A stretch of DNA of 22,551 bases from a virus. Lineage: Duplodnaviria > Heunggongvirae > Uroviricota > Caudoviricetes. The stretch is taken from IMG/VR virus record IMGVR_UViG_2534681934_000013; one strand, 5' to 3'. Below, one piece after another: positions 15,775-16,820 of this stretch. The position numbers and the translations under genes are program-made. The notes below the pieces were generated by a model, which was given only the letters and a program-made list of their open reading frames with translations, was not told where the DNA came from and did no database searches. Within the stretch, counting starts at the first letter, position 1, and the number at the start of each line of letters is the position of its first letter.

Positions 15775-15972
15775 ATGCTAAAACAGCAGGATATGACAGA
15801 AACCGCCAGAGTGGTGTTTAATGAATTAAGCGTTACCGAACCGGCGACAGTCGGGGAGATTGCGCAGAATACTTACCTTTCACGCGAACGCTGCCAGTTA
15901 ATACTGACCCAGCTGGTTATGGCGGGTCTGGCAGACTATCAGTGCGGTTGTTACAGACGCATTCAGTCCTGA
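15775..15972 (+). CDS. small HTH-like protein (65 aa; start uncertain)
   Basis: ATG 15775 with purine-rich leader; TVGEIAQNTYLSRERCQLILTQLVMAGL resembles a winged-helix segment. The longer ORF from 15652 starts inside the terminator T-run and is less plausible. Confidence 0.35.
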   Translation: MLKQQDMTETARVVFNELSVTEPATVGEIAQNTYLSRERCQLILTQLVMAGLADYQCGCYRRIQS

Positions 15973-16106
15973 AGGCTTTTTATTTGTGGTAAATGGGCGG
16001 CTGGTGGGGGGGCGGCACCTGTCAGTCCTTTGCTTATGTGTTGATGATAATTTACCTTTTGGGGCTATAATTGAGCTAACCAATTGCTAATGAAAGTAAA
16101 ATTATA

Positions 16107-16820
16107 ATGGCTGTTGTCTGTTCAGTTATCATGGTTTGCTCCCCAATTAATATTTTTCTTGAAAAGGATACGTTGTCACTTAAGCCAGGCTCAGTCGTTC
16201 TGGCCACCAAATGCATCAGGGAGCTTTTCCTTATGCATTATGGCAAAGTTAAAATTGTCGATATAAGCGAATCCGTCGTAAGTCAATATCTGGAAAGTCA
16301 GCATAAGCTGACGAGGACTCGTCTGACTGACATTCCGCTTTACCTGTTGCTGGAACCCAACAATCCTGCGTTGGCTGCGGCTTTAATTACCAGCCAGGGA
16401 TTTTCCGGAGAGGTCACGGATATGTTTCTTATGATGGCCTGCCTGTCTCTGTTTGAAACAGATGAACGGATGTCATTGTTTTTAAGTGGATGTTTATCCA
16501 GCATAAGTGCCAAAGTCAGGGCGATAATTCAGACAGATATATCAGCAAGCTGGACGCTTGGTGCGATTGCTCTACAGTTGCATATGAGTGAGAGTTTGTT
16601 AAAGACAAAACTGAAAAATGAAGGGGGCATGTTCAGTCGCTTGTTGCTGGAAGAGCGGATGCGTGTTGCTGTAAATATGTTATGTTCCCGGTATGGATAT
16701 GGACAGGCTGTAGCAGAAAAATGTGGTTATTCAAGCCGGTCCTACTTTATTTCTGTATTTCACCGCTATTATGGCTTCCCGCCAGACAGATATGTATCCA
16801 GGCAAGGGCTTGATTATTGA
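16107..16820 (+). CDS. AraC-family transcriptional regulator (prophage cargo)
   Basis: C-terminal dual HTH with the AraC signature (WTLGAIALQLHMSESLLKTKLKNEGGMFSRLL...AVAEKCGYSSRSYFISVFHRYYGFPP). Confidence 0.75.
   Translation: MAVVCSVIMVCSPINIFLEKDTLSLKPGSVVLATKCIRELFLMHYGKVKIVDISESVVSQYLESQHKLTRTRLTDIPLYLLLEPNNPALAAALITSQGFSGEVTDMFLMMACLSLFETDERMSLFLSGCLSSISAKVRAIIQTDISASWTLGAIALQLHMSESLLKTKLKNEGGMFSRLLLEERMRVAVNMLCSRYGYGQAVAEKCGYSSRSYFISVFHRYYGFPPDRYVSRQGLDY

Follow-up and report, generated by a model that had tools for sequence, protein, structure and literature searches.

The 237-aa reading frame that lies between the Q-like gene and the tRNA genes is, with high confidence, psrB, an AraC/XylS activator of the GadW/YdeO/AppY/PatE subgroup that is carried as a late-region moron by a lambdoid prophage of Escherichia coli O157:H7 and that does not have the preceding 65-aa ORF as a partner. 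The window (the whole stretch of 22,551 nucleotides analyzed here) contains the regulatory and late region of this prophage, and the 1.7 kb surrounding psrB is 100% identical in many O157 chromosomes. psrB itself is already known, as an O157:H7 prophage regulator described since 2011, which commandeers the GAD circuit for acid resistance in EHEC and dampens type III secretion. Our comparison delimits the psr cassette, one of several alternatives (PsrB, DNA methylase or nothing) that can fill a single late-operon slot, and sets apart the 65-aa ORF as an independent, uncharacterised winged-helix gene which many Stx2 phages have shortly after Q. The features of the region are listed in Table 1.

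Table 1. Features of the window from the Q-like gene to the tRNA genes
Feature	Position	Strand	Basis or remark
Q-like late antiterminator gene	14984-15550	+	Pfam DUF1133 349 bits, Phage_antitermQ 33 bits; phrog_753 'anti-termination protein Q-like'; RefSeq start (DUF1133 family protein) at 14996
Transcript-like element, ~66 nt, ending in an intrinsic terminator	15585-15651	+	start coordinate predicted
Cargo block, 1184 bp (65-aa ORF and psrB)	15651-16834	+	alignment to Sakai Sp10
65-aa stand-alone winged-helix gene (phrog_331)	15775-15972	+	internal ATG of the mechanical ORF 15652-15972
Predicted sigma-70 promoter of psrB	16044-16071	+	10/12 consensus match; -10 TATAAT at 16066-16071
psrB (AraC/XylS-family transcriptional activator, 237 aa)	16107-16820	+	ATG start; Pfam and 100% identity to WP_000301797.1
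tRNA, anticodon CAT	16849-16924	+	Met by ARAGORN; tRNA-Ile (ileZ), with CAT read as Ile, in the RefSeq/Sakai annotation
tRNA-Arg (TCT), argO	17025-17101	+	followed by a terminator-like hairpin, 17114-17133

Identification of psrB

Both ORFs proposed in the earlier note, of 237 and 65 aa, were found exactly in place. Both are real genes. The longer one is no chance ORF, and its description as an AraC-type regulator was borne out by the Pfam matches given below and by the identity to WP_000301797.1. With tblastn, 237/237 aa were recovered at 100% identity in EDL933 (NZ_CP008957.1, 1905274-1905987), and also in ATCC 43889 and NE92. The EDL933 copy falls within OI-57, which is reported to span 1849324-1929825 (PMC8565820) and consists in EDL933 of two tandem prophages. 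In the 72 kb of the island that were inspected, which reach to 1,918,000, ~12 kb before its right end, the sole AraC-type gene sits on the second of these prophages, while the first, which carries paa, has a DNA methyltransferase gene in the slot between Q and the tRNAs.

According to reviews, the AraC/XylS regulator of OI-57 is PsrB (z2104), 90% identical to PsrA (PMC10877973, PMC8565820), and a 2026 paper equates psrA with ecs1087 (ECs_1087) on Sakai Sp4 (PMC13502914). We measured 90.7% aa identity to ECs_1087, the published figure for PsrA and PsrB being ~90%. A PerC/Pch regulator gene and DUF1076/NleG genes are present on the same prophage in EDL933 and NE92, to the right of the end of the window, and the reviews describe psr genes on prophages that also bear effector loci and a Pch regulator. 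Because of the OI-57 location, the single AraC-type gene in the 72 kb, the ~90% identity to PsrA and the Pch and NleG genes on the prophage, the 237-aa ORF is identified as psrB (z2104, prophage-encoded secretion regulator B). The tag z2104 is absent from the records examined, and the assignment rests on position, uniqueness and the identity figure.

The reviews place psrA (z1789) on OI-50/CP-933N. No AraC gene was found between Q and TerB in EDL933 (NZ_CP008957.1, 1626000-1675999) or in Sakai Sp6, nor in Sakai Sp10, and in the current EDL933 and Sakai assemblies CP-933N/Sp6 has a TerB remnant directly after Q. The conflict with the Sp4 placement (PMC13502914) stems either from the literature, which would then be inconsistent, or from the assemblies.

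Domains and family position of PsrB

PsrB has the hallmark of the AraC/XylS family, a C-terminal domain of ~100 aa with two helix-turn-helix motifs. Residues ~155-230 match the Pfam profiles HTH_AraC (50 bits in two stretches, cutoff 26.6) and HTH_18 (37.8 bits, cutoff 33.6), and the C-terminal domain corresponds to the DNA-binding domain of GadX, 3mkl (E 2e-18; Foldseek TMt 0.71). The earlier note had seen no obvious sugar-binding domain. This holds insofar as our Pfam profile search found no AraC_binding, cupin or other N-terminal domain in PsrB, but the first ~130 aa of the protein probably form an N-terminal domain, residues 1-130 aligning with the N-terminal domains of GadW, YdeO, AppY and ECs_0287. 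The AF2 model, built from a shallow alignment of 12 sequences, has a pLDDT of 64, and its N-terminus is beta-rich at pLDDT 42-78. Rns, CsvR and ToxT are the best full-length PDB matches, in sequence (Rns E 5e-16) as well as in Foldseek, where the model is of low confidence and the superposition poor (TM 0.33), so that for the N-terminal domain these matches are no more than suggestive. These virulence AraC regulators, which have a fatty-acid-binding N-terminal domain, resemble PsrB in size and architecture at ~20% identity.

The N-terminal motif M-x-x-x-C-S-V-I is common to PsrB, YdeO, GadW, AppY and ECs_0287 and is not found in GadX or EnvY. Because this motif is shared and the NCBIfam YdeO model aligns to PsrB from residue 1, the start at 16107 is favoured; the ribosome-binding site (Shine-Dalgarno) before it is weak. 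The ATG located 42 codons further in, which corresponds to the original Sakai annotation of the paralogue, is disfavoured by the same motif.

In full-length blastp comparisons PsrB is 37% identical to ECs_0287 (Sp1, probably PatE), 34% to GadW, 31% to EnvY, 30.5% to YdeO and 29% to AppY, and GadX is matched in the C-terminal domain only, at 41%. Blastp and profiles together place PsrB, within the AraC subfamilies, in the acid-resistance subgroup of GadW, YdeO, AppY and PatE. The YdeO equivalog model of NCBIfam (NF007407) aligns over the full length and gives 106 bits, the curated cutoff being 348, and the GadX equivalog gives 87 at a cutoff of 500. With scores so far under the cutoffs, PsrB is a separate paralogous lineage and not an orthologue. 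Judged by this homology, it belongs with the chromosomal acid-resistance regulators GadW, YdeO and AppY as a diverged paralogue with a lineage of its own. Its relatives in a large protein database are mostly full-length and range from 100% down to 57% identity, with one at 39%; those that are named come nearly all from Escherichia and Shigella.

The cargo block and its neighbourhood

The position of the regulator between the Q region and the tRNAs, as first noted, was confirmed, the Q-like gene lying upstream and both tRNA genes downstream (Table 1). On the 3' side of the tRNAs follow genes for a TerB-like protein, a DUF3927 protein, a SASA esterase and lysis. Homology to Sakai Sp10 covers positions 14995-15650 and 16835-17800 of the window, and since Sp10 has just 23 bp between these segments, the cargo block is a discrete insertion. 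Its left border lies directly after the intrinsic terminator and its right border 14 bp before ileZ, and the homology to Sp4 begins at 15640. The block is modular: phiP27 and many Stx2a, Stx2c and Stx2d phages have the segment 15640-16008, with the 65-aa ORF in it, and no psr.

The slot, which extends from the terminator after Q, or from the 65-aa ORF where there is one, to ileZ, varies in its contents. In the window PsrB occupies it, in Stx2a phages and the first prophage of OI-57 a DNA methyltransferase; in Sakai Sp10 it is empty, and the 65-aa ORF is missing too (polymorphic slot loci compared: L016, 11682-13361; L009, 3634-5333; L005, 25566-25706). Where phages have the 65-aa ORF without psr, and likewise in the first prophage of OI-57, a DNA methylase comes after the ORF and the tRNA genes come after the methylase; in the Stx2 phages examined, stx2 lies beyond the tRNA genes. 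CP-933N/Sp6 retains 130 nt upstream of the 65-aa ORF and is without both genes. Psr-type regulators stand at this prophage position in Sp4, OI-57 and phiSTEC1575-Stx2k; sister prophages have a methylase or an empty slot.

The only phage record with a close psr homologue (91.6% aa) is phiSTEC1575-Stx2k. At its locus 4073-6754, in a record deposited as a complete genome, the 65-aa ORF, the psr homologue, ileZ-argN-argO and stx2k stand in a row, so that in this Stx2k-converting phage a Psr-type regulator shares the late transcription unit with Shiga toxin. Sp4 and Stx2 phages have argN between ileZ and argO; the window lacks this gene and has a 100-nt spacer instead.

The 65-aa winged-helix gene

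The ORF preceding psrB had been called HTH-like, and its AF2 model is confidently that of a winged helix (pLDDT 90.3), with three helices and a beta-hairpin (H4-16, H26-33, H37-49, E53-56 and E59-62). Foldseek relates the model to the winged-helix domains of OhrR/MarR, IclR and SelB (TMq 0.7-0.8), and the PDB sequence search with the protein gave nothing meaningful. As modeled, it would be a minimal winged-helix protein, presumably DNA-binding. There are 302 database relatives (77-98% identical among the matches listed) which span Escherichia, Salmonella, Klebsiella, Citrobacter and Buttiauxella and are constant in length, with MLKQQDM as the start in almost all. The dN/dS relative to the Stx2a-phage copy is 0.13. 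Some RefSeq records label the ORF as TrmB family on a match below threshold, PF01978 giving 18.3 bits at a cutoff of 25.6; the support goes no further than the generic winged-helix fold. A longer reading of 106 aa, from 15652, was also rejected: most of the aligned cross-genus homologues start with MLKQQDM, and the extension overlaps the T-run of the terminator.

The two genes could be imagined as one regulatory operon, in which the small protein might, for instance, be a co-regulator or an anti-activator. They lie side by side on one strand, the 134 nt that separate them contain no predicted terminator, and they occur together in Sp4, OI-57 and phiSTEC1575-Stx2k. We nevertheless regard such a pairing as very unlikely, because the 65-aa ORF is found in 55 phage records and a close psr homologue in one, because the next gene after the ORF is a DNA methylase in Stx2a phages and the first prophage of OI-57, because a conserved promoter-like site separates the two genes, and because CP-933N/Sp6 keeps the upstream 130 nt and neither gene. 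The phage distribution argues that the 65-aa protein is not a dedicated partner of PsrB, and on this comparative evidence the 65-aa ORF and psrB are independent modules and not a functional pair.

Constraint and distribution of psrB

Of 5426 complete E. coli genomes, 725 carry homologues with at least 86% nucleotide identity, typically in two copies (the median) and at most in four. Disruption in all close homologues, which would have spoken against a working gene, was looked for and none was seen: 726/726 matching records cover at least 80% of psrB, and an intact CDS is annotated in all among the matches listed. Between psrB, psrA and the phiSTEC1575-Stx2k copy the dN/dS is 0.22-0.43 overall, with 0.13-0.27 in the DNA-binding half versus 0.37-0.57 in the N-terminal half; by these ratios psrB is under purifying selection. 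Across these three copies the 134-nt intergenic region upstream of the gene is 95% conserved and so exceeds the coding sequence in conservation.

Expression of psrB

Within this intergenic region lies the predicted sigma-70 promoter (Table 1), to be read with the result that the promoter scan yielded no more sites than shuffled sequence. Its TATAAT is invariant in psrB, psrA (Sp4) and the Stx2k-phage copy, and a -35-like element is present. From the consensus match and the conservation, psrB would be transcribed in the lysogen from this promoter of its own. Since the slot comes after the terminator that Q controls, transcription of the late operon would also extend into psrB upon prophage induction.

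A gene that is intact may still be essentially silent, and psrB could be a passenger of a defective prophage that activates gadE only when overexpressed. According to the reviews, deletion of psrB alone had little or no significant effect on T3S, effects appearing with expression in trans or upon induction, while deletion of psrA has a T3S and colonisation phenotype that the psrB deletion has not. Because the single deletion had so little effect on T3S, native expression of psrB may be low. Furthermore, the host prophage in EDL933 is degraded (truncated integrase, truncated RecE and IS elements), the psrB region is AT-rich (43% GC), as is typical of H-NS-silenced DNA, and the Shine-Dalgarno is weak. 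However, a silent passenger would not be expected to show the dN/dS of 0.2-0.4 indicative of purifying selection, nor to be intact in so many genomes, often in two or more paralogous copies, nor to have an upstream region better conserved than its coding sequence, and the reviews report an effect on acid survival and on survival in the mouse stomach. We consider silence of the gene unlikely.

A short RNA-like element after Q

Directly after the Q-like gene lies a transcript-like element (Table 1) that ends in an intrinsic terminator with the stem GCCCGC (15629-15634) / GCGGGT (15640-15645) and a T-run to 15651. The fold of the element has -24.4 kcal/mol (z = -3.6). A match to Rfam isrK at 15577-15650 is below threshold (19.8 bits, E 0.38). 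The 5' half equals that of the Sakai Sp10 counterpart, and the central segment, the 3' half and the terminator differ. The Sp10 copy contains ACUUUACC, complementary to the hha ribosome-binding site GGUAGAAGU; the central segment of the window copy is different.

[quoted passage not shown] The Sp10 element is probably HnrS. The element of the window agrees with HnrS in size, terminator and location, and looks like an HnrS-type variant with a different seed. We infer that it is a short RNA from the late promoter and a variant of the Sp10 element. Of the 5426 genomes, 680 contain it, typically as one copy (the median).

The expression scheme of psrB and the two preceding elements can be put together in a wider reading, in which psrB is expressed in both ways with a burst on induction, the 65-aa protein regulates late or Stx expression, and the HnrS-like variant has other targets. 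That all of this holds jointly seems improbable to us. If it did, an induced subpopulation would get a burst of PsrB leading to GadE-dependent acid resistance and to a shut-off of T3S; the winged-helix protein, the first ORF of the late transcript in many Stx2 phages, would be a regulator of late or Stx expression; and the short RNA variant just upstream of it may have a different set of targets.

Reported function and comparison with known regulators

The earlier note likened the gene to compact regulators of virulence or acid resistance that prophages bring as cargo and that often have chromosomal targets; this agrees with what is reported for PsrB, an activator of gadE and hdeA and an indirect repressor of the T3SS (PMC10877973, PMC8565820). 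In the reviews, PsrB binds the gadE promoter and the hdeA promoter region from -132 to -45, raises the expression of GadE, of AR2 and of acid chaperones, and helps the bacteria to survive both pH 2.5-3.5 and the mouse stomach, and PsrA and PsrB repress LEE type III secretion indirectly, via GadE and YhiF (PMC10877973, PMC8565820, PMC4456613, PMC10057817). The chromosomal regulators GadW, YdeO, AppY and GadX are described as converging on gadE, and the reported gadE/hdeA activity fits the kinship of PsrB with GadW, YdeO and AppY seen in the alignments.

PsrB might, on the other hand, primarily regulate functions of the phage, such as late transcription or lysis-lysogeny, and not chromosomal genes. 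Its place in the late operon, immediately after Q and a terminator, would suit such a role, as would the psr homologue that stands right before stx2k in an Stx phage whose record is a complete genome. Yet the closest relatives of PsrB are chromosomal acid-resistance regulators, its reported direct targets are gadE and hdeA, and sister prophages function with the slot empty or filled by a methylase, so that we give this possibility hardly any weight.

The gene does not differ from psrB of EDL933 (OI-57/CP-933O), and there the flanks are also the same (Q-like gene, 65-aa ORF, ileZ, argO, TerB and SASA esterase), with 99.8% nucleotide identity over 15.8 kb. PsrA has the same length as PsrB and is 94% identical at the nucleotide level, lies in the same cassette, with its 65-aa ORF and tRNAs, and is reported to act through the same GadE/YhiF pathway. 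It differs by 22 substitutions, 16 of them within the N-terminal 130 residues, and in its upstream context, where there is another Q and a CAAX protease. PatE (z0321, OI-8) is, like PsrB, a prophage AraC-like activator of gadE and hdeA, for which the reviews report the same hdeA promoter region. ECs_0287 (247 aa), which we infer to be PatE, aligns with PsrB over the full length, but lies at the right end of a different prophage while psrB occupies the Q-tRNA slot. The K-12 AR2 regulators GadW, YdeO and AppY share full-length homology and the M-x-x-x-C-S-V-I motif with PsrB at identities of 29-34%, and the C-terminal domain of K-12 GadX is 41-45% identical.

Other features of the window

At 6721/6722 a gpJ tail gene, cut mid-gene, runs straight into the immunity region of the psrB prophage. 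A further 14.2 kb is present in EDL933 at this point, where the left side of the prophage meets the tail gene in the window; it comprises what is left of J, together with lom, tail fibres, NleG effectors, IS elements, an integrase remnant, recE and dicB. Among complete RefSeq E. coli genomes none matches the window over its full length in one piece, and the join is for this reason taken to be either an assembly join or a deletion between tandem prophages that is specific to the strain. In the upstream prophage the tape-measure gene (713-3915, +) is split into three ORFs in three frames (713-2071, 1944-2690 and 2701-3915); as it is a single gene of 3.1-3.2 kb in EDL933 and NE92, it is probably frameshifted in the window. 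Finally, positions 17871-18043 (+), between the DUF3927 and SASA esterase genes, strongly match the sRNA family STnc100 in Rfam, with 104.7 bits (gathering score 47).
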